A DNA stretch of 64,000 nt from Kiritimatiellia bacterium (GTDB taxonomy: Bacteria > Verrucomicrobiota > Kiritimatiellia > RFP12 > UBA1067), in assembly GCA_028686345.1 (NCBI GenBank), contig JAQUCE010000011.1, positions 1,355 through 65,354 on the forward strand, read 5' to 3'. A program made the translations under genes and the position numbers. Of the stretch, positions 14,913-43,190 are shown one piece after another (the first letter of the stretch is position 1; each line of letters starts with the position of its first letter). The notes below the pieces were generated by a model. That model searched no databases. It worked only from the letters and a program-made list of their open reading frames with translations, and was not told where the DNA came from.

Positions 14913-14939
14913 ACTGTGAATCATCCTACTCGCCTTCAA

Positions 14940-16313: not shown

Positions 16314-16327
16314 AAATATCCTCCATG

Positions 16328-16346: not shown

Positions 16347-16481
16347 CTACTTCAAACTTGATTTCTCCAAACGCGCAGCGTTTGTGACTAAAGCAGCGGG
16401 CCCATAACCATGAACTTTTCAGTGAGAGCGAATGCCGTCCGCACATCGCTCAGCCGCATTTGGTTTCCGCAGCTAGCTGCT

Positions 16482-17786: not shown

Positions 17787-17994
17787 AATCAGCTCCGAAA
17801 ATAGTATGTTATCTCTTATGTCTCCGCCCGGCTTCACGCTGTTCAACAGCTACAAAAACAGACAAAAACACCCCTTCTCAAATTTCATGCTTACAGCATA
17901 CCACAGTATGCACCTGACAGTAAATAGCTGTTTTTGCTTTAAAATGCGGTGGTAAGTAATTGAAACCTTAGCCTCTCTGTGTCATAATACGGCA

Positions 17995-20689: not shown

Positions 20690-21125
20690 GAAACTTTTAG
20701 GGCAGCTGTAGATCCACTGGACATATGGGTCAAAACAGTTGCACTTTATTTTTGGAAACCGCAAAGAACACATAGACCACAAAGGGTTTTACCGAATAAC
20801 ACGAATTTGCGCGAATAGCGTGTAGCTGCATAACATTCGTGTCATTCGCGTTATTCGTAGTTTAAAAAAAGGTGGGGAAGATTTTGCGCCTTTTGCGTTT
20901 TTTTGCGGCTAAATATAGCGCAGTAAAAGAGAGAAGTAGTAGCCGCAAAAAGGCACAGAAAGCGCAAAAGAAGGAACTTTATTATTTTGAGGTGAAAAAT
21001 GGGGGTCCACCGCATAGCGGCGGACATACTTAAAGCAACACAGTATATCCGCCGCTATGCGGTGGATGATTGCGCAACAAGCCGCAGTAAGGAGCGCTAA
21101 ACAACTTTTCGGAAAGAACAATCAG
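20690..21125. repeat. Composite intergenic repeat, copy C
   Basis: cactggacatatgggtcaaaacagttgcactttatttttggaaaccgcaaagaaca (module also at 3563-3622 and 30633-30690 inverted). The 20780-20950 module (..gcgccttttgcgtttttttgcggctaaatatagcgcagtaaaagagagaagtagtagccgcaaaa) is the reverse complement of 30350-30470. There is a long palindrome ccaccgcatagcggcgga...tccgccgctatgcggtgg at about 21005-21070. Confidence 0.55.
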
Positions 21126-22312: not shown

Positions 22313-22509
22313 ATTTTTCCTTAAATTGCGTTCGTGTTGCGCACGAACAACATATTTCATAAACCGCCTTTGGCACATTTGCACCAGACGCGCGACTCCC
22401 GAGCTTCATCAAAGTGTACAGTGTAGGGTTGGCTCTATGAGCCAACCAAAGGCGCAGCCGACCTCAGTAAGCTCCGGTTTCCAACCGGACAGTCCGATAA
22501 AGTTATGGC

Positions 22510-23349: not shown

Positions 23350-23399
23350 GTCTCAATCTCCTTTTAGGTTTAAATTCTAGGGGGTTACAAGCTATACGC

Positions 23400-23700
23400 C
23401 ACGGAATTGGGGATAATCGTAACCTGCCGTACAGATTATGCCAAGCAAAAACGTTCGGCAAACTGCCACAGGGCTAAAATTTCCCAACCCCGCCATTTTC
23501 TTGCCTCAAAATGCAATGCCGCTGGTAGAGCGGCTGCTACACCGAACGACAACCCTTGCATTTCACAGTGCAGCGCATGTGTAGCAGTCGCTATATGAGC
23601 GGCATAAACACGTGTGAAGCGGCTTCGGTTGACGATGACGTGCGACAATGTTAACCGACGATTGGGATCATGCGGGGCTCGTTACAATTATAGTTGCTGA
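23400..23700. repeat. Composite intergenic repeat, copy D
   Basis: gccgctggtagagcggctgctacaccgaacgacaacccttgcatttcacagtgcagcgcatgtgtagcagtcgct...gacaatgttaaccgacgattgggatcatgcggggctcg, shared with 7580-7720, 31120-31200 and 43060-43160. Confidence 0.55.
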
Positions 23701-23748
23701 ATCCCTTGCTTTTCAGCTATGCTTTATAGGAAGCACATAAAAAAGTAG

Positions 23749-23767
23749 AGTAAGCATCCTGCTTGCT
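23749..23767. promoter_or_regulatory. Near-perfect palindrome AGTAAGCATCCTGCTTGCT about 40 bp upstream of the znuA start codon; candidate operator
   Basis: The same palindrome family is seen at 16328-16346 (AGCAAGCAGGATGCTTGCT, 15-33 nt upstream of the gspG ATG) and at 30088-30106 (TGCAAGCATCTTGCTTGCA). Confidence 0.35.
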
Positions 23768-25187: not shown

Positions 25188-25199
25188 CTGCACAATAAC

Positions 25200-25400
25200 C
25201 GGCCGGAGAACAAAAAGCCTAGCGCAGCATAGCCACAACCAATTTTTTATCTCTCACAGAGGCACAGAGTTCTCTGAGCAATACAACTGCCACTCTCTGT
25301 GTCCTCTGTGCCTCTGTGAGAGCTAAAGCGTGCAAAAAGCACGAGAATGAATGATAGTAGCACGCTAAAGCGTGAACAACAAACAGCTGCTGCTTGTTGA
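25200..25400. repeat. Hairpin-rich intergenic repeat modules upstream of znuC
   Basis: cctagcgcagcatagccacaaccaattttttatctctcacagagg is the reverse complement of the module at 27018-27058 and 30589-30630. There is a nested long hairpin ctctcacagaggcacagag ... ctctgtgcctctgtgagag. gcacgctaaagcgtgaacaacaaacagctgctgcttgttg is related to 29955-30000 and 38745-38775. Confidence 0.55.
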
Positions 25401-25414
25401 GAGGGTAATAATCA

Positions 25415-26128: not shown

Positions 26129-26979
26129 TTGCGGATATTGTCGATGTTCTGAGCTACAGTTTCAACCAGCGGGCGCTGCTAGCCGCGGCCATGATCGGCT
26201 TTCTAAACGGCTTCTTCGGTGCCTACATTGTCCTGCGCAAAGCCTCTCTTTTCGCGGGCGCACTCTCGCACACCCTCTTTCCAGGCATCGCTCTGGCCGC
26301 TCTGATCAGCGGGATCAACCCCTTGAGCGCGCTGATCGGATCGGTCTTTACCGCCCTGGTTGTCGGGGTGGGAGCGCAGCGTCTCTCCCGGCTGACCCGC
26401 GTTGATATCAACACCGTACTGGCCATCCTCTGGACCACCGCCTTTGCCGGCGGATTGCTGCTCCTCAAATCGTTGAATCAGTACGTGAATATCGAGCACT
26501 ATCTCTTTGGCGACATTCTCAGTGTCTCCAATTTTGACATCTGGTTTATTCTGATTGTCGGCTACCTGGCGGCATCCATCATCATTCTCCTGCAGCGCAA
26601 GATCATCATTATGGCGTTCTCCACTGATGGGGCCACGGCCCAGGGGATCGATGTCCGCACCCTTGACTATCTGATGGCAGGCGTTCTGGTAATCGTGATG
26701 ATCACCTCGCTGCAGGCAGTCGGCACCATTCTGACACTTGGACTGCTGGTCGCCCCCTCGGCCATCATCTCCCTCTTTGTCAACTCGCCGCGCCGCATGC
26801 TCTGGGGCGGCGGGGTGCTGGGCGGGGTGCTGGCCTCAGCTTGCATCTTTCTCTCCAACATCTTTAATATCCAAACCGGCGCACTGATTGTGCTGCTGCT
26901 GGGCGGTGTGTTTTTAGGCGCGGCCCTGTTCAAAACAGCGTTCACCTTGCGTGACCATACAAAACAATGCGAGACATAG
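26125..26979 (+). CDS. znuB: Metal ABC transporter permease (ZnuB-like)
   Basis: 284-aa polytopic membrane protein. The 4-nt overlap with znuC indicates translational coupling. Confidence 0.8.
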   Translation: MIADIVDVLSYSFNQRALLAAAMIGFLNGFFGAYIVLRKASLFAGALSHTLFPGIALAALISGINPLSALIGSVFTALVVGVGAQRLSRLTRVDINTVLAILWTTAFAGGLLLLKSLNQYVNIEHYLFGDILSVSNFDIWFILIVGYLAASIIILLQRKIIIMAFSTDGATAQGIDVRTLDYLMAGVLVIVMITSLQAVGTILTLGLLVAPSAIISLFVNSPRRMLWGGGVLGGVLASACIFLSNIFNIQTGALIVLLLGGVFLGAALFKTAFTLRDHTKQCET

Positions 26980-26989
26980 AGAGTAGCGG

Positions 26990-27075
26990 AGCTCTTCGCC
27001 ACTCTGGGAACTCTGTGACTCTGTGAGAGATAAATTGGGTTGCGGCTATGCTATGCTGTGCTGTGTTTTTTTAAG
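26990..27075. repeat. Intergenic repeat module downstream of znuB, the inverted partner of 25216-25262
   Basis: ctctgtgagagataaattgggttgcggctatgctatgctgtgctg. Confidence 0.5.
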
Positions 27076-27083
27076 GAGAAATT

Positions 27084-29741
27084 ATGAAGCGAATATTATG
27101 CTTAGTGCTCGGAATGACAGCTGGTCTCTGCCTAGGGGCAGAGCTTGAGACACTGGTTGACTTCACGCAAGCTGATCATGGTTGGCGCGGTAATCACTTC
27201 ACACGGGTGGTAGAACCAAAGAGCCCCATGACCGTGGAACTGATTGGCGAAGATCCGTGGATCGAGGGGCCGGCCATAGCTGTATCCTCTTCCGCTGATG
27301 CCAAAAAACTTTTGCTAACACTCCACGCAGAGTCGCCTCGTGATGGAGCCTGCCAGCTCTTTTACGCCGCGCCGGGCCAGCACTTTTCGGAGGGCGCGGC
27401 AGTATACTTACGTCAGCTCCCTGAATCGCGCTCAACCTATCAAGGCATCATTCCGTTGGTCACCGACACCTTGCGCTTCCGTATTGATCCGCCTGGCAGC
27501 TCAGGCATTTTCACCCTGCGCTCCCTCCAAGCACTGCCCCTGACTCCACTGACAGCACTGCCATTTACTGGGCCGTCACCTGTCTTGCTCTCGGAGCTTG
27601 CGCCCATGATTGAGGCGGGCAACACCAAGGTGATCCATGATGCCACCCGCTGGAATACATTCGCGGTTTTCATCAATGGCCACAAGATGGCTGAATCCAA
27701 TCCAGCGGAGAGCGTGGTTTATTGGGACAATCAGCAGGCCATGACTGTGTTGCTCTCTGAAACAACTGTTGAGCAACGCGCCGACGGATTCACCGTAAGC
27801 GCCCGCGGCCAGGATCAAGGGGGAGCCCTGTGGCAAATCTCCCGTGTTTTCACTGTTGACCGCAATGCCGTGCGCATAGAGACTACGCTCTCTGTGAGTG
27901 AGCCCCGTCAGGTTGTCCACCTGCCATGGCTGACTCTCTTTGCCGGAGTCGGCTCCTTTGGCGAATCAAAGAGCCAGGCACTGCTGCCCGGCGTGGAGTA
28001 TCTTGCCAACGAGCCCTCCAGCAACGAGAAAGAGATTCGCGGCACGGCGGCCAACCGGCGGATCACAGCAGCCTACAAGAGCTGCTTTCCCATGATGGCG
28101 ATCGCCGCTGACGGGCACTGGCTGGCGGTTGACTGGCAGCAGGGCGAGCTGCCGGCTTCGCCGCTCTTCGACTCCCCTGACCGCCTGTTCCACTCCGGCG
28201 GCCATGTGTTCGGACTCTGGTCGCCCGCGGTTGGCGAGCATCGTTTTGAGGGCGAGACAGCTGTCTACGGGAGCATCCACCTGGCAGCTGGCCACCCATA
28301 CCACTGTGCCGCAGCGGTGCGCGGCGGCCAGGGCGATGTTGTAACCGAGGCGATCGGCGGTTATGTGGCGCGCTTTGGCTTGCCGCCTCTGCCAGAGTAC
28401 ACACCCGGGTTTGAGGGCGCGGTGCGACTGCTGGCAGGGGGCTGGCTCGATTCATCGGCGCGCCACAACACAAAGTGGAGGCATGCGGTGTGGGGCGAAG
28501 CCTTCCCGTCAGCGCTCGCAGAGGATGTTCCCGCCTATCTGCTGTGGCTGGCGGCTCATGCGCCGGAGGCGGCTCTCAAACAGCGGCTGCAAGCGAGCGC
28601 GCGCGAGGTGATCGCGGCGCTGCCCCCGGGGAATCCCGGCATCAACGGCGTCTCGCATGTCAACCGCATCACCGGCGCCCTGCTTTACGGCGGCCTGGAA
28701 CGGCTGGTGGCCGGAGCGGCTGGACGGGTCAAAGCGCGCGCAGCGCAACTCGCACAAACCGGAGGTGTCGCGCGTTACACCGCAACCCCTGGCAAGCCTG
28801 ACTATGCCTCCACTCTGGGAAGTGACCACTGCAACGGATTCACGGCCATGTCGGTGGAGAAGCTGATGCAGGACGCAAGCCTGACCGGCGATCAAACGGC
28901 GATTGCCGCGGCCTTGTCAGCCCTGGATCAAATGACCGCTCACTATGCCGGAGAGGTTCCGCGCGGTGCCCAACCTTGGGAAATGCCGCTGCACACGCCG
29001 GATATCGTGGCAGCGGCGCGCCTGCTCCGCTGCTATGTCCTGGGCTACCAGCTGAGCAACAACACGCGCTATCTGGAACAAGCCCGCTACTGGGCATGGA
29101 GCGGGGTGTCAATGGTTTACCTCGCCCCTCCGACCGCTGGCCCGGTGGGGCTTTACGGGACAATCGGTGTGATTGGCGCCACCAACTGGCACTCCCCTAA
29201 CTGGATTGGGCAGCCAGTGCAGTGGTGCGGTTTGGTCTACCGCTCGGCACTGGCTGATCTGGCGCGGGTTGACGCCGCGCAGGGCGCTCTCTGGCAGCAA
29301 TTGGCGGGTGGCATCACAATCAGCGGCTTACAAATGTGTTTTCCATTGGATGACCCTGAGCAGCGCGGCGGCTTGCTGCCCGACTATTTTTTGTTACAGG
29401 CGCAAAAACGCGATGGACCGGCCATCAACCCAGGGACGCTGCAAGCCCACTTGGCGGAGGCGTATGGCAAGACCCCCATGTACACCCTGACGCGTCTCGC
29501 CAACGGAGTGCTGGTGCATGCGCCCGGCACAGTGGTTCAAGAGCAAGAGGCCGAGACTAGCACTAGGATTACCATCACAGCCTGGCCCGAAGAGGAGTAT
29601 CGCATTTTAATCACAGGCATTGCCGGGCCGCCAGCTAAGATAATGTGGAACAACGCGCCTGTTGCACCCCGCTTTTTAAACGAGGCTTGCGCGATGATTG
29701 TTCCTCTAAAAGGATGCGGCACGCTGGAGCTAGAACAGTAG
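27084..29741 (+). CDS. Large secreted hypothetical protein (885 aa), no domain recognised
   Basis: Strong RBS (aaGGAGaaattATG), signal peptide MKRILCLVLGMTAGLCLGA, and a long uninterrupted high-GC ORF. Confidence 0.6.
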   Translation: MKRILCLVLGMTAGLCLGAELETLVDFTQADHGWRGNHFTRVVEPKSPMTVELIGEDPWIEGPAIAVSSSADAKKLLLTLHAESPRDGACQLFYAAPGQHFSEGAAVYLRQLPESRSTYQGIIPLVTDTLRFRIDPPGSSGIFTLRSLQALPLTPLTALPFTGPSPVLLSELAPMIEAGNTKVIHDATRWNTFAVFINGHKMAESNPAESVVYWDNQQAMTVLLSETTVEQRADGFTVSARGQDQGGALWQISRVFTVDRNAVRIETTLSVSEPRQVVHLPWLTLFAGVGSFGESKSQALLPGVEYLANEPSSNEKEIRGTAANRRITAAYKSCFPMMAIAADGHWLAVDWQQGELPASPLFDSPDRLFHSGGHVFGLWSPAVGEHRFEGETAVYGSIHLAAGHPYHCAAAVRGGQGDVVTEAIGGYVARFGLPPLPEYTPGFEGAVRLLAGGWLDSSARHNTKWRHAVWGEAFPSALAEDVPAYLLWLAAHAPEAALKQRLQASAREVIAALPPGNPGINGVSHVNRITGALLYGGLERLVAGAAGRVKARAAQLAQTGGVARYTATPGKPDYASTLGSDHCNGFTAMSVEKLMQDASLTGDQTAIAAALSALDQMTAHYAGEVPRGAQPWEMPLHTPDIVAAARLLRCYVLGYQLSNNTRYLEQARYWAWSGVSMVYLAPPTAGPVGLYGTIGVIGATNWHSPNWIGQPVQWCGLVYRSALADLARVDAAQGALWQQLAGGITISGLQMCFPLDDPEQRGGLLPDYFLLQAQKRDGPAINPGTLQAHLAEAYGKTPMYTLTRLANGVLVHAPGTVVQEQEAETSTRITITAWPEEEYRILITGIAGPPAKIMWNNAPVAPRFLNEACAMIVPLKGCGTLELEQ

Positions 29742-29749
29742 TTTCAGTG

Positions 29750-31245
29750 CACAGCTAAAGCAGCTAGTCGGGCCACCAAAAGAATTTGTGTGGTGTGCGG
29801 AAAGTCCTCGCTCTCATTCAGAAGTTTGTGATTGAGAGCCCGCTGCTACAGTAACAAACGCTGCGCGGTTGGGGAAACGAAGACAAATTTTCAAGAACCA
29901 ATCAGAGAACAAAGAGCACGCTTCCGGCTCCGAGCTTCGCTTTTACGCCGTGACAGGGAAGCGTGAACAACAAACGGCTGCTACGTAAGGTTTGTTGTTC
30001 AGCCTTTCCGTGTCCGGCGTAAAAGCGAAGCGCGAAGACGGAAGGCTGCTCCAAAGCGGATTATTGAGACGTTACTGTAAAAGTGATAATGGAGTAGTGC
30101 AAGCATCTTGCTTGCAGAAAACATTTTCATTCAAGCTATAGGTGTTTAGGCTGTAGGGGTTTAGGGTTCCTAATCACAATCCTAATCGTAATCCTCGTCT
30201 CTTTCGGCAGACGATGCTGTGCGACGATGTTGACCGACGATTGGGATCATGCGTGGGCTCGTCCACCAACATCGTCGGCACTATCGTCAACCAAAGGCGA
30301 AGCCGATATCCAGTAGGTCCGGTTTCCAACCGGACATCTTTGATTGAAAATCGGAGCTACGTTTTTGCGGCTATTACTTCTCTCTTTTACTGCGCTATAT
30401 TTAGCCGCAAAAAAGCGCAAAAGGCGCAAAATCTTCCCCAACCTTTTTTAACTACGAAACACACGGAAAACACGAAAGGGGGTACGCTTTGTAGGGGTTT
30501 CTCACAGAGGCTCAGAGAACACAGAGCGCAAAGTATGTTACTCTGAGAACTCTGCATGGCACGCCGTAGCCTTGGCGTAGGAGGGTGCCTCTGTGAGAGA
30601 TAAAAAAATTGGTTGCGGCTATGCTGCGCTAGGTTCCTTGTGGTTTCAAAAATTAAAGTGCAACCATTTTGACCCCCTATGTCCAGTGATCTGTCATTCG
30701 CGTGTCGCCCGCATAGCGGACGACTTCCTCCTCCGCGTCTTGTCAAATGGAGTAGGCGCGGAAGGAGGTCAGTCGCTATGCGGCTGACTATACCGCGCAC
30801 CTGATGGCTCGAATGTCACCCGCAGTCGCCCACGACTTCCTTGCTTCGCGCCTACCGTGCAACCTGCAAGCTTCATGACAGTGGAAACGTGTAGGGTTGG
30901 CGGCCCTTGTCCGGCATAGTTCCGCCATGCCACGGCGTAGCCCCGCTTGCGGGCAAAGCCGGGTTGCGGGCAAAGCCGGGTTGCGGGACGACGACGGATG
31001 AGCCAAACAAAGATTATGAAACCCCATGGCGCGCCTTTGACGAACAAGCGCCGGGCATACGCTAATTGCTTCTGAGAAGCAACCCTACACCCCATGGCGC
31101 GCCTTTCACATGCCTGTGCAGTGCCGCTGGTAGAGCGGCTGCTACACCGAACGATAACCCTTGCATTCCGCAGTGCAGCGCATGTGCGGTAGTCGCTCTG
31201 CCAGTGACATTGGTTGGTCATAATAATTATCACTGTTTGACAGCC
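29750..31245. repeat. About 1.5-kb compound block of stacked intergenic repeat modules with no convincing coding gene
   Basis: It contains the 29915-30050 long imperfect palindrome (gcttcgcttttacgccg..gaacaacaaac / gtttgttgttc..cggcgtaaaagcgaagc), the TGCAAGCATCTTGCTTGCA palindrome (30088-30106), gcgacgatgttgaccgacgattgggatcatgcg..gctcgtccaccaacatcgtcg (30225-30285), ccagtaggtccggtttccaaccggacatc, the inverted copy of 20780-20950, the ctctgtgagagataaa..ggttgcggctatgctgcgctagg module, the inverted cactggacat...gcactttaa module, the tandem gcaaagccgggttgcggg pair, and the ccgctggtagagcggctgctacaccgaacga module. All ORFs here are inside multi-copy DNA. Confidence 0.6.
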
Positions 31246-31248
31246 TGC

Positions 31249-32370
31249 TCACAGCACCCGCTGTATGCCAACCGGAACTGATGCCGGACGCGGGGGAACG
31301 CCGGTTGTATGGCAGTCAGCACACTGCAGCCGATGGATGTTATGCTGGCTGGTGCGGGAGCGGTAGGTGGTGTCCATGGCCATGACATCCTGATTGCAGG
31401 AGGTAAAGCGGGGATGACAGGTGACACAACTCCCGCGCGTATCGTTGGAATGCGGCTTGTGACAGGCAGCACAGCTGATCCCCTCATGCACACCGATCGG
31501 TGTACGGTCGTCGCAGCTACCAGCGTGACCATGGGAGTTGGGTGCATGACACTGCATGCACAGGCGCTGACGCGGGTCGCTTGAAACCGTAACCAGACGC
31601 TCCCCGTCAACAATGCGCGGTATGCTTAGCCCGTCAATCGGCAAGGCGCATTTTTCCTGACGCACATAGAATGCAAGCACATCACGGCGGAGTGACGGAG
31701 CATTGGTTGCGCCAACGTCAGTTGTCTGCGCGGGTTCCCGGCTCCGCTGGTACGGCGACCCCTGTGCGTGCAAATTGTGGCACGCCTGACACGGTATGGT
31801 GGGCTGGAGAGCCATCGCCGGATTCACCAACTGCCACGGTCCGGTAATATTCAGCGGTGTGACAATATCTTTGATCCGGTTCTCATTAAACATCGCGTGA
31901 CACCGCAGGCAATCTTCCGCCATCTGCTCAGCCTGATTATGCTTTTCATCCAGGAATATACCGGCATAGTTGATGCCATGTCCGCCGCTTTGCCAGTGAG
32001 CAAACTCCTTGGCGTGGCAGCTCTGGCAGTTATTCATCACCCGCAGGTTCTGTTCCTCGGTCAATCGGATCTCATCATGCCGCTGGTCAGCAAGGTGATA
32101 AAAGATGCGTTTGGTGTTCTCCTTTAAGGCGTGCCAGGAGTCAGCTGAGCCGCCATGACAATCTTTACAGGAGACATTGCGATGCGCAGAGTTGGTCCAG
32201 CTCATGTATGACCCATTCATCTCATGACAGGAGACGCATGTTTTCTCTGCCGGAGTAAACTCAAAATAACCCACTCCTCCCAGAAATGAACAGACCAGAA
32301 AAACAGTCATGAGTGCCAGCGGCAGAATATACCAAGCTCGCTCTCTTCGATTTTCACTCATCTCTTTCAT
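31249..32370 (-). CDS. Membrane-anchored multihaem c-type cytochrome (9 CxxCH motifs; NapC/NirT/NrfH-like N-terminal module extended to a nonahaem), cytochrome subunit of the adjacent flavoprotein dehydrogenase
   Basis: N-terminal TM helix (WYILPLALMTVFLVCSFLGG). Haem motifs CVSCH, CKDCH, CQSCH, CLRCH, CQACH, CMQCH, CAACH, CVTCH, CADCH. Confidence 0.8.
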   Translation of the reverse strand: MKEMSENRRERAWYILPLALMTVFLVCSFLGGVGYFEFTPAEKTCVSCHEMNGSYMSWTNSAHRNVSCKDCHGGSADSWHALKENTKRIFYHLADQRHDEIRLTEEQNLRVMNNCQSCHAKEFAHWQSGGHGINYAGIFLDEKHNQAEQMAEDCLRCHAMFNENRIKDIVTPLNITGPWQLVNPAMALQPTIPCQACHNLHAQGSPYQRSREPAQTTDVGATNAPSLRRDVLAFYVRQEKCALPIDGLSIPRIVDGERLVTVSSDPRQRLCMQCHAPNSHGHAGSCDDRTPIGVHEGISCAACHKPHSNDTRGSCVTCHPRFTSCNQDVMAMDTTYRSRTSQHNIHRLQCADCHTTGVPPRPASVPVGIQRVL

Positions 32371-32387
32371 CCATTAACCCTTCAATT

Positions 32388-34040
32388 TTAAGTACGGAAA
32401 CGCCCGCCGCCCCGCCACTCCCGCGCAATATACTCGCCGACCCAGAACCCCAATGCCATGATTGTTAGCACAGGGTTAAAACCGCCGTTGGCCACATTCA
32501 GACTGCCGTCTGCCACAAAGAGGTTATCAATTCCATGGAGCTGCCCATAGCGGTTGGTGACAGAGCTCTTGGGGTCATCACCCATCCGGCAGGTGCCAGC
32601 CTGGTGCTGACCACCGCCCGCCGAACGTCGGGAGGCGGGCGAAGGGGCGCTGCGCTGGATACTCTTGGCGCCGACCTCCTGCAGCAACTGCTCAGCCTTA
32701 CCGGCGATAAACTGCCCAATCTCCGCATCGTGCGGATGCTTGGTGCCTGAGGTGCGCAGCAGCGGGATGCCCCAGTAATCTCTCTTTTGCGGATCCAGCA
32801 TCACTCGGTTATCAAAAACCGGCATCTCCTGCACCGGCCCCACTACCCGGATAAAGTGTTTATACTGCTCCCGCTGAAACTTTTTGTGCGCGATCCCCCA
32901 GCGGGCTGCCCCGGCCGGGCGCTGATGTGTAAAGGAATAGGGCATGATGATAAAATCATTGGCCAGCATGCCGCCTCCATGCAGTCCGGGATTGCCATGA
33001 TTAAAGTCACAAAAAGCCACGCTCGCGCCTGGACCGGCCTCCTCATAGACCTGCTCATTCATCAAGCCAAAGGCCCCCACATAGCAGTGCCCCTGGAGGT
33101 TACGCCCCACCCAGTCGTTATTATTTCCAGCCCCGCCGGGAAAGAGCTTTGACTTGGAGCTGAGCAGGATTCGCGCTGTCCCGCTGGCACTGGCTGAGAG
33201 CACCACCAGATCGGCGCTCTGCTCCTGCAAGCGGTCATTGATATCAAAATATTTGACACCGCTGGCACGCCCCTGATCGTCAACCATCACTTCACTCACA
33301 ACCGCATCGGTGCGCAACTCACACAATCCAGTTGCCAAGGCAGCGGGAATGACCGTATTCTGCGTGCCACACTTGGCATTAACCGGGCAGGCATAGCCGC
33401 AGCAAGTACGCATATGAATGCACTGAGGCCGCCCTCCATACGGAATGGAGTTCCTGAGCATGGGAATTGGAAATGGATGCCAACCCAGCCGCTGCATACC
33501 GGGAATCAGTAGCTGCGCCTCACGGTCGTAAGGAAATGCCGGCATGGGCCGCGACCGCGCGCGCTGGCCAGCAAAGGGATTGGCTGTATCGTCGCCCGCC
33601 ACACCCACCTCCCACTCAGCACGATCATAGCAATGCTCCAAATCTTCGTAAGAAATTGGCCAGTCATCCAGGGTCGATCCATCCAGCGCGCCATAAATCG
33701 ATTTCATCCGGAAATCCTGCGGCATAAACCGCCAGGCCTGCGCCCCGTAAGTCACTGTGCCGCTGCCGACGCACGCCACGTTGTTGGGGGTCACCACTCC
33801 ATAGCTGCCATTATCAAATTCATGCGCCTTGCGCGAGGGCTTATTCTCCGGCCCCGGCGCCCGGGTCAACTTGGGCGAGCGCTGCGAGATCAGCTCGTCA
33901 TCGCCGGTATCGTGAAAGTTCTGCCACCGACCCCGCTCCAGCAGCACGACCGACAAACCAGCCTCTGCAAGCACCTTTGCCACCACGCCGCCTCCGGCGC
34001 CGGCACCAACAACAATTGCGTTCACATGCTTATTGGACAT
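32388..34040 (-). CDS. GMC-family FAD-dependent oxidoreductase (gluconate 2-dehydrogenase flavoprotein subunit-like)
   Basis: N-terminal FAD Rossmann motif NAIVVGAGAGGGVVAKVLAEAGLSVVLLERG. 550 aa with a GMC-like C-terminal region. Confidence 0.8.
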   Translation of the reverse strand: MSNKHVNAIVVGAGAGGGVVAKVLAEAGLSVVLLERGRWQNFHDTGDDELISQRSPKLTRAPGPENKPSRKAHEFDNGSYGVVTPNNVACVGSGTVTYGAQAWRFMPQDFRMKSIYGALDGSTLDDWPISYEDLEHCYDRAEWEVGVAGDDTANPFAGQRARSRPMPAFPYDREAQLLIPGMQRLGWHPFPIPMLRNSIPYGGRPQCIHMRTCCGYACPVNAKCGTQNTVIPAALATGLCELRTDAVVSEVMVDDQGRASGVKYFDINDRLQEQSADLVVLSASASGTARILLSSKSKLFPGGAGNNNDWVGRNLQGHCYVGAFGLMNEQVYEEAGPGASVAFCDFNHGNPGLHGGGMLANDFIIMPYSFTHQRPAGAARWGIAHKKFQREQYKHFIRVVGPVQEMPVFDNRVMLDPQKRDYWGIPLLRTSGTKHPHDAEIGQFIAGKAEQLLQEVGAKSIQRSAPSPASRRSAGGGQHQAGTCRMGDDPKSSVTNRYGQLHGIDNLFVADGSLNVANGGFNPVLTIMALGFWVGEYIAREWRGGGRFRT

Positions 34041-34236
34041 CTGTCCTCCTCCTGGTTTTAATCACCTATACTCTAGAACGTGCTTTCTAAAAACATATTA
34101 TCAGAGGTCAATCTTTGTCCCAATCCTAATCTCAATCCTTATCTCTTTCAGCCAGCCACAGGCAGCCGTTGTTTGATTAAGATTGAGATTAGGAACCCTA
34201 ACGCATACAGCTAAAAACCTAAACCCCGACAGGGCG

Positions 34237-34854
34237 CTAGACGCTATCATAGCGGTTCTGTCCGATCACCCGCGGATACTCAAGGCCCATCATCCGATAA
34301 CTGACATAGTTTCTGTTACCGCCATGTTTAGGGCTGCCGTAATAACCCTGCATTGTGTGGTCGCAGACCATCCGGAAAAAGCCGGCCGCATCCTGATCCG
34401 ACCAGATTTTTTTAGAAGCCTTGCCCGACTCCAGAGCTTGCAGCACCCTTGTCTGCTCATCCCATTGCAATGCTTCGAAAACTCTTCCGAACATCTCCCT
34501 GCTCGTTTCCTCAATCCGTTTGAGCCCCGCGCGGTAGCTCTGCGTCTGCTCCCGATAAGGCCCGCTCAACTGCTGGTCAATAAAGTTGACCACGCCCGCC
34601 GCACTGGCGCCGCCAAACTCATCAGCCGGGATGATCTGCTCTGTTACCAGGTCAACCAGATCGGCCTCCGACTGCGTCAGCACCAGCCAGGGACCACTCG
34701 GTGGTGCTCCCAGCCGTCCCACCAGCTTAGCTCCGCCGACTCCAGCCGCCACGCCACCCGCGGCCGCAGCCAGGATCTTAAGGCAATCACGGCGCGACGA
34801 ACCTGCTTCTTTTTTACGCTTCATCTCGGGCTCCTTCGATTTGACGCTTCGCAT
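34237..34854 (-). CDS. Gluconate 2-dehydrogenase subunit-3-like small subunit with twin-arginine (Tat) signal
   Basis: Tat motif SSRRDCLKILAAAAGGVAAG. Length and position (first gene of a gamma - flavoprotein - cytochrome trio) match the GADH gamma subunit. The alternative start at 34824 is also possible. Confidence 0.65.
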   Translation of the reverse strand: MRSVKSKEPEMKRKKEAGSSRRDCLKILAAAAGGVAAGVGGAKLVGRLGAPPSGPWLVLTQSEADLVDLVTEQIIPADEFGGASAAGVVNFIDQQLSGPYREQTQSYRAGLKRIEETSREMFGRVFEALQWDEQTRVLQALESGKASKKIWSDQDAAGFFRMVCDHTMQGYYGSPKHGGNRNYVSYRMMGLEYPRVIGQNRYDSV

Positions 34855-34939
34855 CTATAAACTGCAAGATATGTATTAGATCGAGACATGACAATATGGT
34901 ATCATGTTTGAAGTTTCCTTAAAACCTCAAAAGGATATT

Positions 34940-37900
34940 ATGATAAAATTATTCAAGAAAATCACGCTGTGTACCGCTGTGCTACTCTCTATTTCAGCCA
35001 GTGCTTTCAACCCGCCTACCGATGAAAACGCGGGCATGACACTGCAGATCGAAGGGGTCAAAGCCAACGAGCCGGTTGATCAACCGCTGCGCTTTGAGGT
35101 TCAGCTGATCAACAACACCTCTACGGATGCGCAGGGCACGATCAAGGTCTGGCTGAACGATGACTGGGATGCCACGCCATCCGAGAGCGCAGCCCTCACA
35201 GTCGTTGCCGGCAAAAGTCACACCTTGCAGTGCACGGCAACCGCTAAAGGACGCGCCCTCGCAGCACTCTATCCGGTTCACGCCTCATACACCACTCCCG
35301 ACGGCCACCTGCTCCATCCAATCGCTATTTTTAAAGCCGAGCGCTCCCCTGACACCCAAGCATACACTGTCAAGCCGCAGGAGGTTAAAGCCGGCTTTCT
35401 GCGTCTTGATCAGACCCCCCACCGCCTCTCGTTCTACCAGCAGAAGGGCACTGTGACCGCGCTGGGGCCGAACTTCAGCGGCACAGATCCGGCCAGTCGC
35501 ACTGCCATTCAAACCCGCGCGGAGAGCCGTGGCGGAGTCACCCGCGGATCTTTCAACGTGCACCCCCCCTATCAAGGCGGCGCCGGCACAACCTGGAACG
35601 ACTTCCCGCTCTCCCTGCCGGCTGACACAAAAATTGAGCTCGCCTTCCACACCGCGATCCGCGACTCCGCGCCTACCGAAGGAAGCGGCAGCGACGGGGT
35701 TGAATTCAAGGTGTTTGTGATCCGTGACAACAACACACCGCAGCAGCTCTTCACCCGCTTCAGTGCAGCCAAAATCTGGGAAAAGGCAATTGTTGACCTG
35801 AGCGCCTACGCTGGACAAACCATTACCCTGCGTCTCTGGACCGGCCCCGGGCCGCAAAACAACACCTCCTGCGACAGCAGCTTCTGGGGCGATCCGGTTG
35901 TTTTTGCGGGCGACACTCAGCCATCCGCTCCGACACCGGAGATATGGGCAGCCCGCGGAAAGAGCGCAGCAACTCTTGCCCGCCAGGCCCTGGCAGAGGG
36001 TGGTCGCCCCTCCCGGGGTTGCTTTGTGCTGAATGTACGCGGCGAAAAATTCGGCGTGGCTGTCGTGCCTGGCACCCAGGGGCTGACCGATGGCGTAATT
36101 GTTTTCACGGACGGGAAAAATGAGCTGCTCTACCGCGGGTTTCTCTGTCAGATCGACAAACTGCCGGTGGGCGCGGTCGAGATGGGCGCGCCTGTGGTTG
36201 AAACTAAACATCGATCTTTTCTCGGGAAGTTTTATCTCACCCATTATGTCGCAACACCGGGCGGCATAGTTGAGGCCCGCGCCACACTCTATGCTGACCG
36301 TGGGGCGCTGCGCATTGCCTGGGACATGCCGGGTGTCAGCCGCGATGCCCGCGGCACCCCGCGCTACACCCGCCTGGGAATCGGCCCCTGCGTCACACCG
36401 CTCAAACGCGCCTATGCCGGACTTGGCAATGTAATTGAGGAGCCCCAATCCTTCTCGCTGCGCGGCGGCGGCTTCACGCTCGCGACCCGCCACGTGGGCG
36501 CTGACTACACGAATAAGCTCAGTCTGCTGCAAGCCGCTGATGTTTTTCCGGATGCGGCTGTTTATGAAAAAGAGAGCGAACGCTTTGCCCTGGAGTGCCC
36601 GCATGACACCTCTTTCTACTTTATTCCCTCAGCGCAAGGCGCCTTTGCAGCTGCCCGCGCCTACCGCGATATCAACGGCTTCAAGCAGAGCCCGGGCTTC
36701 AAAAACACGGTTGGCAAAATGTGCCTTGATCAATGGGGCGGCGACTACGCTGATGCGGCGAAAAGTTTGGCGCTGGCAGGCAAGTACGGGGTAAACGACG
36801 CGATCTTTGTCAAGCACGTCTGGCAGCGCTGGGGCTATGACTACCGCCTGCCTGAGATTTTCCCGCCCAGCGGCAACATGGATGACTTTATGCGGATGCG
36901 CCAGGCAGCCAAAGACGCGGGTATGATCTTCGCGCCGCACGATAATTATATCGACTTTTACCCCGATGCCGCAGAGTACAGCTATGATCACATTGTCTTT
37001 AATGCAGACGGAAGCCCACAGCTCGCCTGGATCAACGAGGGACGTCAGGCGCAGAGCTACCGCTGGCTGCCGCACGCCTTTCAGCCCTGGATGGAAGCGA
37101 ACATGCGCGCCATGCGCCGGTCATTCCAGCCTGACGGACTCTTCATCGATGTCTTTACCGCCATGCCGCCAATCGACTACTACGACCGGGAGGGGCGTTA
37201 TTTCACCCGCAACCAGACAGCTAAACTATGGGGCGAAGCCTTTAACACATGCCGCCGCATACTCCAGCGCGGGGCCCCCATGATCAGCGAGGCAGGCACC
37301 GACGCATTGATCGGCGCGGTTGATGCGGCCCAGTCGGATCACATGGCTGCCAGCCGCTGGATGAAAGATTTCGGCGTGGCTGTCCGAACTCCATGGCACG
37401 ATATGGCCAGTCATGGGCGGATGGTACTGCTGGCAGGCGGGCTCGGCCCCCGCTACAGCGCCCTTGATTGGAGGGCAGCCGACCGGCCGATGCACGGTTA
37501 CGGCAGTGATGACTACCTCTCCAACACCGTGATCGGCGGGCGCAACCCCATGTGTGACGGCCCCTTCTCCCGGCGGGCGGTGATGACTTATTGGCTGCTG
37601 CACGATGTCTGCGCTGAGCTGGGCCGTCAGGACTTTGAGAGCCACGCATTTGGCGCCACCATCCTGCAGCAACGCACCACCTTTGGCAAGAGCGGGCGTG
37701 TATGGAGCAACCGCGGCGTTGAACCGTGGCGCGTGGCAGATGCGCACACACTCCCGCAGTACGGCTTCTACGCCGAGTGCGGCGACACGCGCGCTGGCGT
37801 TGTACTGCTGGATGGTCAACGGGCCGCCTTTGCTCAAAGCAAAACCGCTGTTTTTGTGGATGCGCGTCCGTTACATGACCCTGGAGTAAACATCAAAGTG

Positions 37901-38620
37901 GCGGCCGAGGTGACCGGCGGCAAGTATCTTGGCGCAGGGCGGTTCGCCTTCACTGTCAAGTGGGAGGTTTTCGATCCCGTTCCCGCGAGCTACAAGCCAT
38001 TCCTGCACTTTGACCGGGCAGACCACGAGCTTGACCAAGGCGAGAACATCGCTTTTCAGGCCACGCTCAATCTGCCGGTCGAGCGGCTGGCCCGCACCGG
38101 AATCTTTGAGACCACCACCGAGTTCTCGATCCCAAGGGAGGCGGCAGCTGGCGACTATGCCATCCGCTTCGGGATGTACAACCCCGCCAACCGACTGCAG
38201 ATCTCCGGTTTGACTGGCTCTGGCGGGCGGATCAAAGGGGGGCGGATCTCGATCAGCAAAGAGGAGAGTCAGTTTACGCAAGGTGCCTATAACATCGAAA
38301 ACAGCGATGACCTCAACGCGCTTCTGGAGTACAACATTGCCGGTAAATCGCTTGATTTTGGCGCAATTCAGACCGCAGGCGCCTTTCGTCTGCTGTACGG
38401 GAACACTCGCAGCTGGAGCCTGGTTCCGCTGCCTGGCAGCCGCCCCTTCTCCGCGGTCATTGACCTGACCCAGCTCGGCGCAGGAGAGCGTACAGTCAAA
38501 GGTGTGATCGCAGTTGAGCCCAAGGGCGAATATGGTCAAGAGGTTGAATGGAGCCAGAGGGAGGGAGCACTCAGAGTGCAACTCAACGGGCGCGCCTTTG
38601 CCTATGAGATCCAGTTCTGA
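34940..38620 (+). CDS. Very large secreted hypothetical protein (about 1226 aa), possible carbohydrate-active enzyme (unassigned)
   Basis: RBS aaAGGAtattATG, signal peptide MIKLFKKITLCTAVLLSISASA. The 439-aa antisense ORF 35285..36604 inside it is judged spurious. Confidence 0.6.
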   Translation: MIKLFKKITLCTAVLLSISASAFNPPTDENAGMTLQIEGVKANEPVDQPLRFEVQLINNTSTDAQGTIKVWLNDDWDATPSESAALTVVAGKSHTLQCTATAKGRALAALYPVHASYTTPDGHLLHPIAIFKAERSPDTQAYTVKPQEVKAGFLRLDQTPHRLSFYQQKGTVTALGPNFSGTDPASRTAIQTRAESRGGVTRGSFNVHPPYQGGAGTTWNDFPLSLPADTKIELAFHTAIRDSAPTEGSGSDGVEFKVFVIRDNNTPQQLFTRFSAAKIWEKAIVDLSAYAGQTITLRLWTGPGPQNNTSCDSSFWGDPVVFAGDTQPSAPTPEIWAARGKSAATLARQALAEGGRPSRGCFVLNVRGEKFGVAVVPGTQGLTDGVIVFTDGKNELLYRGFLCQIDKLPVGAVEMGAPVVETKHRSFLGKFYLTHYVATPGGIVEARATLYADRGALRIAWDMPGVSRDARGTPRYTRLGIGPCVTPLKRAYAGLGNVIEEPQSFSLRGGGFTLATRHVGADYTNKLSLLQAADVFPDAAVYEKESERFALECPHDTSFYFIPSAQGAFAAARAYRDINGFKQSPGFKNTVGKMCLDQWGGDYADAAKSLALAGKYGVNDAIFVKHVWQRWGYDYRLPEIFPPSGNMDDFMRMRQAAKDAGMIFAPHDNYIDFYPDAAEYSYDHIVFNADGSPQLAWINEGRQAQSYRWLPHAFQPWMEANMRAMRRSFQPDGLFIDVFTAMPPIDYYDREGRYFTRNQTAKLWGEAFNTCRRILQRGAPMISEAGTDALIGAVDAAQSDHMAASRWMKDFGVAVRTPWHDMASHGRMVLLAGGLGPRYSALDWRAADRPMHGYGSDDYLSNTVIGGRNPMCDGPFSRRAVMTYWLLHDVCAELGRQDFESHAFGATILQQRTTFGKSGRVWSNRGVEPWRVADAHTLPQYGFYAECGDTRAGVVLLDGQRAAFAQSKTAVFVDARPLHDPGVNIKVAAEVTGGKYLGAGRFAFTVKWEVFDPVPASYKPFLHFDRADHELDQGENIAFQATLNLPVERLARTGIFETTTEFSIPREAAAGDYAIRFGMYNPANRLQISGLTGSGGRIKGGRISISKEESQFTQGAYNIENSDDLNALLEYNIAGKSLDFGAIQTAGAFRLLYGNTRSWSLVPLPGSRPFSAVIDLTQLGAGERTVKGVIAVEPKGEYGQEVEWSQREGALRVQLNGRAFAYEIQF

Positions 38621-38789
38621 GACAACGAGCCTAGCCCAACTTTACCTATTCGGACAAAAAGCCGTGGTAAAACAATGTGTTTTGTCATGAAGGAGGAATT
38701 TAAAATGATTACTCAATCGAGAAACCCTTTTTGGAAGCAAAGAGCACGCTGAAGCGTGAACAACAAACCTTACGCAGCAGGCGTTTTCC

Positions 38790-39779
38790 TTACTGGCTTT
38801 CGCTGATCAGCTTATAAAGTCCGGGTTTCCAAACTTTCTCAAACTGCTGGGGAATTCGCTCGCGGGCCAATTCCCGGAATGGTTCAGAATCAATGGCAAC
38901 AAACTCAGCCCCGTCAGCCTCAAGTTTCTGGCGGTAACCAGCTTCAGCCCGCTCGACCTCGAGGTTGTGCCAGCGGGTTGTGTCTTCCAACGCCCGTAAC
39001 AGGAGCCCGCGCTCCTCCGGGGTAAAACGACGCTCCAGGTTGGGTCCGATGGAGGGCACATAAAAGCTGATCAGATGGCGCGTCTCCATGATGTATTTCT
39101 GGACCTCCTGCAGATGGTTGGCGTAGATGGTGGCGAGCGGGTTCTCCTGCCCCTCCACCACCCCGAGCTTGAGCGCCATAAAGATATCGGTGAAGGGAAT
39201 CGGAGTGACATTGGCTCCGAAGGCCTGCCATGATTTCATGTAGATCTCGAGTTCAGGAACGCGCAGCTTGAGCCCTTTGAGATCATCCAGGGTCAGCACC
39301 TTGCGTGAGGTGGTCGTGAGGTAGCGCGGTCCACGGAACCAGGGCTGCATGAGCCGGGCACCCGATTTTTTTTGCATGACGCGTCGGACCTCTTCGCCAA
39401 TAGCCCCATTCCAAACATGTTCGACATGCGCGTAGTCGCGCCAGAGGAAAGGTGCCTCAAAGGCGCCGTACTGGGGCGCATACCAGCCGATAATCGCCAA
39501 TCCGGTCACAATCATATCAACGCTGCCGAGCTTCAATCCCTCGATCAGCTCCCGCTCATTACCCAGCTGACCGCTGGGATAGAGGCGCACCGCCATTTTG
39601 CCGTTGGATTCGGTTTTGACCTGCTCCGCAAAACGAACCGAGGCCTGATGCAGCAGCTCAGAGGGTCCTGGCACATACGCAACCCGCAAAATCTTGGGCT
39701 TTACCTCAGTGGGTCCACAGCCGCATAGCCACAGGGCTCCCAACACCGCCATTACTGTCAATCGATTATTTGCATTCAT
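38790..39779 (-). CDS. dctP: TRAP transporter substrate-binding protein, DctP family (lipoprotein)
   Basis: Lipobox ALWLCGCG, DctP-family sequence pattern (..RVAYVPGPSELLHQASVRFAEQVKTESNGKMAV..YPSGQLGNERELIEGLKLGSVDM..). Confidence 0.75.
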   Translation of the reverse strand: MNANNRLTVMAVLGALWLCGCGPTEVKPKILRVAYVPGPSELLHQASVRFAEQVKTESNGKMAVRLYPSGQLGNERELIEGLKLGSVDMIVTGLAIIGWYAPQYGAFEAPFLWRDYAHVEHVWNGAIGEEVRRVMQKKSGARLMQPWFRGPRYLTTTSRKVLTLDDLKGLKLRVPELEIYMKSWQAFGANVTPIPFTDIFMALKLGVVEGQENPLATIYANHLQEVQKYIMETRHLISFYVPSIGPNLERRFTPEERGLLLRALEDTTRWHNLEVERAEAGYRQKLEADGAEFVAIDSEPFRELARERIPQQFEKVWKPGLYKLISESQ

Positions 39780-39781
39780 AT

Positions 39782-40389
39782 TTATTCAAGCCTGGGGCTG
39801 TGTCCCCCTCGGGTCGGGACAGGTTTAAGAGTTATCAGATAGACCGCTTTGTCAGAGAGGTCATCCTGATTGAAGAACTCGGCGACAATGAACGAGTCAC
39901 CCTTGAAAGCATGGATGCCGGTAATCACACCAGGTGCATATCGCATTGTACCCGCAGGCACGACCTCATCGGTATGTGCGACTCGTGTGGATTTCAGTTT
40001 CAGCATGTTCGACTTCCCGCAAAGAAATCATACCGTTTTTTCTGTACGCCCTCCGCTGCTTTAGATTAAACATCGTACGCTCCCAGGAATCGGCTACCAT
40101 TAAAATGAATCAGATGTGAGGGTGCATCGGCAACCCACACCTCGGTCTCCCATGCAATCTCCCCCAGATAACGGCTCATAATAGAGCGGTTGGGAAATGC
40201 TGTCACAAACACGAGTCCGGCTTTGGTACTGTTTACAGGACGTTCCGGCCTGTCTGGATTATACAAAGCAATCCCGGCGGCAACAAACTGGTGCATTGTT
40301 TGCCGTCTGATTGTTTCACGTGTGTTCGGTGCATAGTTCTTACCGTAATGGTTTCGAATCCAGTCCATTATCGGCGTTATCCCTATCAA
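39782..40389 (-). pseudogene. Degraded gene remnant (107-aa plus 74-aa ORFs separated by an in-frame stop/frameshift) in a low-GC islet; possibly a restriction-endonuclease-like N-terminal fragment
   Basis: ORFs 40066..40389 (..WIRNHYGKNYAPNTRETIRRQTMHQFVAAGIALYNPD..) and 39782..40006 are collinear and split by about 60 nt. The region 39780-40560 is markedly lower in GC than its flanks. The family assignment is not secure. Confidence 0.3.
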
Positions 40390-40562
40390 CGGAGACTCGG
40401 CATTCTCCCAGCTTTTACGAGGTGTTGGGTAGCGTATTCAATGTTATTAACCTTATTAAACTTGATTCCTGTTGCGGGAGGTCATTCCTTAGCCCACCCA
40501 CTTTGAACGCTCACTATTATACGACAAACCGCTGCTGCGGGCTAGACTATTCTGTTTTTGGC

Positions 40563-42939: not shown

Positions 42940-43190
42940 CCACACTTTAGCCTGCCTTTGACGAACAACCATCCGGTGTCCGCAATTGCTTCATCCTCCT
43001 TCGCCAAGGCTACGGCGGACACGGTAGAAGCAACACTACACCCCGGGGCGCGCCTTTCACGAGCCTGCGGCAAAATGCCGCTCGTAGCGCGGCAGCGGGT
43101 GACGATGGTGTGCGACGATGTTGACCGACGACTGATATCATGCGGAGCTCGTCCACCAGCAGCGTTGTTATTTGGCGTGTTCTAATTCGG
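42940..43190. repeat. Composite intergenic repeat, copy E
   Basis: ccgcaattgcttcatcctccttcgccaaggctacggcggacacggtagaagcaacactacaccccggggcgcgcctttcacgag...ccgctcgtagcgcggc...gtgcgacgatgttgaccgacgactgatatcatgcggagctcgtccaccagc. Near-identical to 7480-7740. Confidence 0.55.

Follow-up and report, generated by a model that had tools for sequence, protein, structure and literature searches.

The 64-kb stretch of the Kiritimatiellia bacterium contig JAQUCE010000011.1 analysed here (the window, to which all positions given without a locus name refer) contains a gene-free interval of 1507 nt at 29742–31248, its longest intergenic gap. This interval, called the block below, lies between the convergent genes of a putatively secreted 885-aa protein and a nonahaem cytochrome c, which both face it with their 3' ends (Table 1). 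Analysis of its modules, their copies and the comparison loci indicates that the block is probably a mosaic, similar to the bacterial interspersed mosaic elements (BIMEs), of about a dozen dispersed extragenic palindromic families. These include GTAG-tagged repetitive extragenic palindromic sequences (REPs) and their inverted doublets (REPINs), and for at least one of these families a cognate REP-associated tyrosine transposase (RAYT) is encoded in related genomes.

For comparison, the pattern of the commonest module was searched in 185,579 genomes, among which a single species representative matched, the Kiritimatiellia metagenome-assembled genome (MAG) JBAYXX01. About 0.92 Mb of non-redundant sequence from the JGI metagenome that yielded this MAG is designated the sister genome; its syntenic genes share 77–90% nucleotide identity with the window, and it is therefore closely related but a different strain. 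Fetched comparison loci carry L-numbers, and module copies were counted in about 0.98 Mb. Within the window and the sister genome, 96% of the block bases have at least one further copy (median nine copies), as against a repeated share of 62% for all intergenic DNA of the window. Twenty-three local matches on both strands tie the block to eleven other intergenic regions, and all copies of its modules within the window are intergenic. An earlier note, made from the sequence alone, had described stacked modules of nearly all types in both orientations with the repeat family densest at this place; these matches agree with that description, and nowhere else in the window are its repeat families stacked so densely. 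Family copy numbers span 1–3 (module C) to 50–85 (A1). Folding of the individual modules, suggested by the same note, gave a divided result: the hairpin core, R1, R2, D and H folded significantly better than shuffled sequences, while E, parts of X and the module at 30150–30203 did not. A common GTAGCAGC head across several modules was considered and dropped, as only 6 matches were found versus 1.8 expected. A CRISPR array was rejected from the layout only, which has no regular repeat-spacer pattern, and an integron attC array from the sequence only, since head and tail of module T do not fit RYYYAAC/GTTRRRY.

Table 1. Flanking genes and repeat modules of the block, with positions in the window.
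Feature	Position	Strand	Description
Upstream flanking gene	27084–29741	+	885 aa; signal-peptide-like N-terminus; from the list of open reading frames (ORFs); 3' end towards block
Module T	29755–29885	+	Starts 13 nt past the stop codon; invariant head CTAAAGCAGCTAG; 7-bp hairpin at 3' end
138-nt imperfect palindrome	29914–30051		Core 29958–30008; outer left arm 29923–29957
R1	30094–30118	+	GTAG-tagged REP hairpin, GTAG TGCAAGCA TCT TGCTTGCA; 3' end of T-hairpin-R1
Short repeats	30135–30203	+	GGTGTTTAGG/GTAGGGGTTTAGGG plus TCCTAA-type; periods 15 and 12 (Tandem Repeats Finder)
Element A	30204–30363	+	160 nt; ends sharply defined in at least 11 full copies; A1 plus R2 doublet
A1 long hairpin	30204–30300	+	About 97 nt; arms of about 31 nt, three GACGAT per arm
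R2 REP doublet	30313–30363		R2a, GTAGGTCCGGTTTCCAACCGGAC, 30313–30335 (+); R2b, 30338–30360 (−), decayed
Module C	30362–30476	+	TTTTTGCGGCTA...TAGCCGCAAAAA hairpin; 12-bp perfect stem; A/C-rich tail
Module D	30500–30598		99-nt hairpin closed by TCTCACAGAGGC/GCCTCTGTGAGA; encloses CGCCGTAGCCTTGGCG hairpin 30562–30587
Module E	30603–30693	+	7–17 copies
Module H	30704–30853		REPIN-like hairpin; arms 30704–30736/30756–30788; CCGCATAGCGG core; tail 30799–30853
Composite X	30845–31216	+	About 370 nt; GTAG hairpin 30891–30930 (+), tandem duplication, R6, R3 doublet
R3 REP doublet in X	31122–31145 and 31189–31209	− and +	Folds as a single long hairpin
Downstream flanking gene	31249–32370	−	373-aa nonahaem cytochrome c; Pfam multihaem families; nine CXXCH; 3' end towards block

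The REP character of the block became apparent from its tagged hairpins. Hairpins with a perfect stem of at least 6 bp and a loop of 3–9 nt were scanned for GTAG 5' of the stem, or CTAC 3' of it, within 0–2 nt. Four of the five block hairpins were tagged, compared to 0.07 ± 0.26 in first-order Markov simulations; window-wide, the tag accompanied 11 of 31 intergenic but 4 of 92 coding hairpins, and GTAG ranked first of the 256 tetranucleotides. The test was anchored to hairpins because coding DNA is depleted of stop-codon words, which distorts plain counts: GTAG alone showed a 2-fold intergenic excess, but CTAG (5-fold) and TAGG (2.3-fold) were enriched as well. The stems of R1, R2, R6 and R3 measure 6–8 bp and their loops 3–5 nt, and R2 and R3 occur as inverted doublets able to form longer hairpins, as do REPINs. 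A GTAG tag, a short palindrome, high copy number, an extragenic site and inverted doublets define REPs and REPINs (PMC3733652, PMC3116915). GTAG-tagged REPs are known from the Planctomycetes-Verrucomicrobia-Chlamydiae (PVC) superphylum, and REPs favour positions downstream of genes and between convergent ORFs (PMC3733652).

R2 amounts to about 100 units in 0.98 Mb, and a pattern search retrieved 109 stretches, of which almost all come from the JGI metagenome behind MAG JBAYXX01. GTAG was present on 97 of 206 two-strand matches, which means that nearly every R2 unit has the tag. The two halves of the doublet are distinguished by a compensated exchange of G-C for A-T. At this variable stem position 192 of the 206 matches form a Watson-Crick pair (A-T in 141, G-C in 51), corresponding to two alleles, and the persistent pairing indicates that the stem is maintained.

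A tblastn search with an approximate E. coli RAYT query detected no RAYT in the 64-kb window and the first 18 loci. The loci retrieved by means of the R2 pattern included three Y1-transposase genes; tblastn leads there were verified by Pfam and NCBIfam. The first of them (L086, 2204–2902) encodes 232 aa and matches Pfam Y1_Tnp with 32.1 bits (cut-off 23); its top NCBIfam match is REP_Tyr_transpos (61.9 bits, E 5.7e-17), with transpos_IS200 at 18.9 bits. RayT annotation is widespread among its homologues. Across 32 aligned homologues, H144 and Y202 do not vary and H142 hardly does, which corresponds to the HUH motif and the tyrosine, and the profile matches PDB entries 4er8 (E. coli TnpA-REP), 2xm3 and 2a6m, with IS200/IS605 TnpA among them. 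On either side of the gene GTCCGATTTGGAAATCGGACCTAC, the R2 repeat, is arrayed head to tail, in 13 units upstream and about 21 downstream. Orthologues in L132 (GCA_046482825.1, 64% identity) and L133 (an ENA contig, 72%) keep the same downstream neighbour, a gene of about 380 aa, and are flanked by GTCCGGTT[A/G][A/G]AAACCGGACCTAC, of which the L133 units are identical in 24 of 24 positions to window 30312–30335. Hence, three related genomes contain a RAYT with R2 on both sides, the arrangement of a REPtron, and because these flanks are of R2 type and match the window so exactly, R2 in the block is regarded as the cognate REP of a syntenic RAYT lineage. This lineage has apparently been inherited vertically.

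The arrays in L086 (JGI Ga0265294_10000406) extend over 1803–2165 and 2900–3522 with a period of 29–30 nt and 6-nt spacers, in which GCAGCC-like and GTGATT-like sequences alternate; the last 22 RAYT codons are duplicated upstream at 1737–1802. A tandem R2 array of similar kind was observed in L115 (14131–14396), and arrays of this length next to a RAYT seem out of the ordinary. The second RAYT-like gene (L098, 4051–4578 and 4597–4839) is interrupted by a stop and surrounded by GTATATCCGCCGCTATGCGGTGGA-type repeat arrays (3850–5110). The same GTATATCCGCCGCTATGCGGTGGA family forms an inverted doublet at window 21006–21066 and is related to the CCGCATAGCGG core of H. The third gene (L047, 6019–6741, 240 aa) is bracketed by 17-nt inverted repeats, TTTGACGCTTCGCGTCT and AGATGCGAAGCGTCAAA (5883–6844), and recalls the 'TIR-associated' tyrosine transposases (TIR, terminal inverted repeat) described by Di Nocera et al.

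Comparison with related genomes, which the earlier note had proposed, revealed gain, loss and replacement of modules at other orthologous intergenic regions, the block locus itself being without counterpart in the fetched loci. Intergenic regions of three sister loci orthologous to window segments differ by whole modules. An R3 doublet with a partial A1 (window 23518–23685) is missing in L115, with clean junctions and no target duplication >2 nt; a composite of X and A1 of about 330 nt in L115 is missing from window 22385–22509; and window 25188–25414 and its sister counterpart have unlike modules upstream of a common core. The lack of a target duplication agrees with transposition of the single-strand Y1 type and speaks against miniature inverted-repeat transposable elements (MITEs) of the DDE type. 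Furthermore, L006 of the sister genome contains a 2.1-kb block with the same order of T-hairpin...A...X between two other convergent genes, and composites, not just single modules, evidently propagate. The repeats mark intergenic regions that change fast between close relatives.

We propose that REPs, REPINs and their carrier composites (element A, X-A and T-hairpin-R1) are non-autonomous elements which RAYT-type enzymes would move as single-stranded hairpins without target duplication. The RAYT would presumably provide the catalysis, and the untagged modules T, A1, C, D and E would be moved by some enzyme, if by any. Insertions would survive chiefly downstream of genes, and a convergent gap may accumulate them because it offers no promoter to disrupt. 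Later nested insertion, tandem duplication (17 nt) and deletion would have shaped the present mosaic, and an inverted duplication may have turned a 51-nt core into the 138-nt hairpin. The term nested-insertion hotspot, which had been suggested for this locus, is fair in so far as it describes nested insertions and indels, for which the split between T and R1 and the module indels among copies speak.

Module T stands out by its position relative to stop codons. About 21–25 copies were counted in about 0.98 Mb. Within the window T also occurs at 16357–16487 (−) and 7846–7925 (−), and besides these three window copies about 23 were recorded in the comparison loci. In 14 of 19 BLAST-defined copies, T starts no more than 20 nt past the end of a same-strand ORF of at least 100 codons; the same test applied to the 5' ends of A, X and R3 gave 1/27, 0/8 and 0/16, respectively. 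Among 26 copies defined by a regular expression, the TAA of the module itself is the stop codon in 14, and 7 more lie 3–16 nt past a stop. At least two elements that otherwise differ have the 20-nt head of T in common. The structure of T comprises a 10-bp terminal stem (CTAAAGCAGC/GCTGCTTTAG), partly decayed in the block copy, and three more helices, and in this structure 83.5% of the alignment cells are paired versus 33–40% in slid controls. Covariation adds little beyond sequence identity, and no convincing compensatory changes were found because the copies are too alike. T was kept at an orthologous site (window 16357–16487 and L063), and T-R1 at 16.4 kb occupies the entire intercistronic gap between genes F and G of a type II secretion system (T2SS). 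This gap belongs to a type II secretion/pseudopilin operon (10921–17846) comprising five genes with the N-terminal methylation motif (repeat family D2) and T2SS F and G.

GTAG REP termini frequently supply TAG stop codons (PMC3733652), and E. coli REPs up to 15 nt from a stop codon lower translation of the upstream gene, according to the passage of PMC12306157 that cites this effect. T might conceivably represent a distinct, undescribed class of elements targeted to, or selected at, stop codons, although we rate this as rather unlikely. If true, T insertion coupled to gene ends, or a termination-coupled function in the 3' untranslated region (UTR), would exceed ordinary REP biology. T lends itself to examining whether repeats of this kind adjust the termination of translation or the 3' ends of mRNAs.

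The fixed orientation of T at stop codons and the T-R1 unit filling the T2SS F-G gap would also be expected if the block were primarily functional RNA, namely a long structured 3' UTR, a terminator or stabiliser cassette or small RNA genes for the two convergent genes, with repetition being secondary. The very stable hairpins and the E. coli precedents point in the same direction: E. coli REPs serve as 3'-UTR terminators and stabilisers, besides the effect on translation near stop codons, and by analogy the hairpins of the block, if transcribed, may have such roles. However, Rfam at gathering score matched only a tRNA-Asn in the window, with nothing but sub-threshold look-alikes of miRNA hairpins in the block, and the covariation in T is scant. 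Modules occur in both orientations, also in the divergent promoter region 23350–23762, and are gained or lost between close relatives, while the block has a single weak terminator-like site, and promoter-like sites are not in excess. A primarily RNA-based function, which would be compatible with a REP mosaic, is therefore considered possible but doubtful.

The earlier note placed a MITE-like hairpin of about 135 bp at 29915–30050, and we located arms of 62 nt each (29914–29975 and 29990–30051) with 79% complementarity and a loop of 14 nt. The RNA fold proposed as a check yielded a minimum free energy (MFE) of −86 kcal/mol (z −10.8, with 0/200 shuffles as good), and as DNA the MFE was −55.2 kcal/mol (z −11.1). 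Exact repeats of the core GCGTGAACAACAAAC, formerly reported at 25365 and 38752, were found at 25370 and 38754 (chance expectation 0.02), and 8–14 copies of the core palindrome (29958–30008) were counted. The 35-nt outer left arm is present in just 2 of 6 aligned copies and both outer arms in the block alone: the L006 copy kept the 51-nt core palindrome and the right flank without the outer left arm, and the L111 copy kept the outer left arm without the outer right arm. In sequence, this outer left arm reverse-complements the right-arm variant specific to the block (GTAAAAGCG in place of GTAGCTGCG) and hence arose by inverted duplication.

Together with its neighbours the hairpin forms the composite T-hairpin-R1 (29755–30118), with a second occurrence at the non-orthologous site in L006. 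At 16328–16487 R1 directly follows T, while about 209 nt including the hairpin intervene in the block and about 95 nt separate T and R1 in the sister orthologue of 16328–16487. In L115 (10128–10400), parts of the hairpin are circularly permuted relative to window 29940–30130, with right arm, flank and R1 followed about 250 nt on by the left arm; this may trace a circular intermediate or a tandem copy that was partly deleted. Judged by its copies, the long hairpin is a locally extended 51-nt core palindrome within a composite element rather than an independent or bounded MITE.

Accordingly, the designation MITE-like could not be upheld: the hairpin lacks boundaries of its own, a target-site duplication and a matching insertion sequence (IS), although IS were not searched systematically. 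The same question concerns the modules in general, some or all of which (such as T and the long hairpin) could be classical MITEs, that is, deletion derivatives of DDE-type IS with TIRs and target-site duplications. Such an origin might be read from the 10-bp inverted repeat bounding T1 and from the long imperfect palindrome of the hairpin. However, element A has no terminal inverted repeat, conservation of T extends about 30 nt beyond its second inverted repeat, the arms of the hairpin vary piecewise between copies, and the insertion relative to the sister genome is clean. In addition, no IS whose ends match came to notice in about 1 Mb, in which no systematic IS search was made. We therefore regard classical MITEs as improbable and favour GTAG-tagged REPs and REPINs together with associated palindromic modules, with a RAYT in relatives, as the constituents of the block.

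A mosaic of repeats in a MAG also raises the question of assembly errors. Window 30752–31439 is reproduced with 1 mismatch by the ENA contig L136 (ERZ1761208, 688 nt), window 31157–32819 with 1–2 mismatches by two Logan contigs, and X is covered by the independent contigs L134–L136. The right third of the block and the cytochrome junction are therefore not artefactual. The same organism was also detected in the read sets SRR30309667 and ERR13731081. Both Logan contigs stop at 31157 within the R3 doublet, as expected because repeats break short-read assemblies, and the short-read assemblies of this organism are indeed broken by these repeats. Exact-protein look-ups gave no record for the 885-aa protein, the GMC protein and the 137-, 110- and 50-aa ORFs. 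A wholly or partly chimeric join of repeat-bearing contig ends could account for the contigs of other samples breaking at 31157 inside the block and for the absence of the 885-aa gene and the middle ORFs from the other assemblies looked up. It is nevertheless very improbable, given the agreement of at least 99.9% with three independent assemblies over 30752–31439 and 31157–32819, the divergence of 7–28% between module copies, which is enough for resolution by an assembler, and the like-ordered 2.1-kb block in L006.

The largest ORFs inside the block comprise 154, 137 and 110 aa and have zero Pfam families; in the paralogous copies they find only fragmentary matches in differing frames with stops. 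Together with the missing Rfam match this indicates that the block is non-coding, in agreement with the earlier view that it holds no credible coding sequence, and neither Pfam nor the comparison of paralogue frames detected a conserved protein-coding gene across it. A concealed gene or pseudogene, to which the three ORFs might belong, is extremely improbable in view of these broken frames, the empty Pfam result and the equivalent ORF at 7220–7762, which sits on the strand opposite to that of the block ORF. The repeats do yield false ORF calls, as the 154-aa 'gene' of the block, which belongs to composite X, is recorded in a public assembly (L136).

Several observations weigh against the interpretation of the block as a RAYT-linked REP mosaic. 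The regular alternation of classical E. coli BIMEs is absent, so that the block is not a BIME in the strict sense; the module order is irregular and differs among 7290–7925, L006 and the block. Most of the block length (T, A1, C, D, E and inner X) bears neither a GTAG tag nor a linked enzyme, and the 10-bp terminal inverted repeat of T is a transposon-like trait. A link between RAYT and REP was seen in relatives only, the closest of which has shared genes 77–90% identical. The 61.9 bits of the L086 RAYT lie under the NCBIfam equivalog cut-off of 80 bits, and a single-sequence PDB search with this protein gave nothing, a profile being required. Finally, the left part of the block (about 1 kb) depends on a single MAG contig.

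The block and its relatives resemble the REP/REPIN-RAYT systems known from E. coli (TnpA-REP) and Pseudomonas fluorescens (REPINs) in the 20–25-nt hairpins with 5' GTAG, the compensated inverted doublets, a main extragenic family of about a hundred copies and, in the relatives, a syntenic, putatively single-copy Y1 HUH transposase amid its own REPs. Unlike in those systems, the host belongs to the Kiritimatiellia, the RAYT of about 232 aa has a long insertion besides its sub-cut-off score, the sister RAYT is surrounded by arrays of 13 and about 21 REPs instead of one or two, many repeat families occur alongside at least three RAYT-like genes, and most of the block consists of untagged companion modules. 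Enterobacterial BIMEs share REPs in both orientations with other conserved motifs at 3' or intercistronic sites but alternate two types with fixed linkers, whereas the block extends over 1.5 kb with about 12 families. The mosaic regions of Neisseria, where dRS3/CGTC-1 occurs with Correia and other repeats, are likewise kb-scale stacks of unrelated families (PMC3733652); their sequences differ, dRS3 is CGTC-tagged without a dedicated transposase, and Correia elements are MITEs bounded by TIR/TA. PVC GTAG repeats, e.g. of Opitutus terrae (Di Nocera et al. 2013), share the superphylum, the tag and termini which sometimes give stop codons; they belong to another class, and in the window the stop-supplying element T contributes TAA through its CTAAAG head instead of a TAG through GTAG. 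BOX elements of Streptococcus pneumoniae and enterobacterial repetitive intergenic consensus (ERIC) or other modular repeats are also modular (boxA/B/C-like) with strong secondary structure, but BOX has a fixed module order, no known dedicated transposase and unrelated sequences.

REPs in convergent gaps, mosaic clusters and PVC GTAG repeats are thus already documented, and T might be the one feature which is more unusual. The REP surveys consulted do not mention the Kiritimatiellia, and a combined literature text search listed no paper naming this taxon. Our results extend REP/REPIN-RAYT systems to this lineage, which is known mostly from metagenomes. The genome of the window has an unusually rich element set of about a dozen families, and a close relative has at least three RAYT-like genes.

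The remaining modules were traced by their copies. R1 (DNA fold z −3.8) recurs at 16328–16352 (−), at 23746–23767 (+) and about 20 times elsewhere. The short-repeat module at 30135–30203 has an inverted copy at 34175–34221, is represented by about 30 copies of its part 30168–30200 and is shared with L132. In this more distant Kiritimatiellia MAG, the GGTGTTTAGGCTGTAGG(G)GTTTAGG module (window 30135–30168) forms inverted pairs at 2747–3020 and 5182–5473, one enclosing a 250-nt stretch and the other, like a cassette, a 23S_rRNA_IVP (four-helix-bundle) gene. The GACGAT (ATCGTC) motifs of A1 and its copies are repeated three times at 13-nt spacing and resemble an array of protein-binding sites. 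A1 was also considered as a CGTC-tagged REP, for which a CGTC tag, an 8–9-bp stem opening with A-T pairs, a 4–5-nt loop and a CCA tail were required; it has GACG/CGTC motifs, but its hairpin of about 97 nt with arms of about 31 nt is of the wrong architecture.

An inverted copy of module C with 90.5% identity lies at 20836–20951, and 1–3 copies exist elsewhere. Module D (DNA fold −23.5 kcal/mol, z −3.8) is found again at 25246–25327, 27002–27034, 7498–7523 and 42992–43017, and inverted copies of module E at 3563–3641 (94%), 25210–25248 (90%) and 20715–20769. Copies of module H (DNA fold −28.9 kcal/mol, z −6.6) lie at 3827–3863 and 7775–7839. Composite X, with copies at 7290–7676 (72%, 389 nt) and L006 5492–5850 (84%), contains the direct repeat ACCCCATGGCGCGCCTTT at 31021 and 31089 and the REP R6 at 31066–31088 (−). 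Its tandem duplication, noted earlier as two units at about 30950–30985, proved to be a perfect repeat at 30947–30987 (period 17, 2.4 copies, 100% match), and the paralogue at 7333–7498 has one 17-nt unit fewer, visible as a 17-nt shift between the repeat families D12 and D6.

The 885-aa protein of the upstream flanking gene gave no family match in a Pfam scan and has a 100% identical counterpart among the proteins of an NCBI Kiritimatiellae MAG. Its next homologues (69% and 63% identity) have non-syntenic contexts, which were rejected as orthologous block sites and thus permit no comparison of an insertion with an empty site for the block itself; of their contigs only L001 matched block modules, with three weak short matches (E 1.6e-5 to 0.011). 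Synteny with the sister genome (L115) ends just past an ABC permease gene, and the fetched loci contain no equivalents of the 885-aa, cytochrome and GMC oxidoreductase genes. In the comparison of window 26972–38790 with L115 11961–14975, the gene of a 1238-aa protein and the block likewise lack a fetched sister counterpart, and this segment of about 12 kb may be an insertion or rearrangement between repeat-rich gaps. A further gap of 783 nt (39780–40562) lacks any long ORF free of overlaps and, in contrast to almost all other long gaps, is devoid of repeat modules. At the left end of the window (1–2801), a 909-aa ORF has a G+C content of 39–45% compared to about 55% in the remaining window, which may mean a foreign origin.

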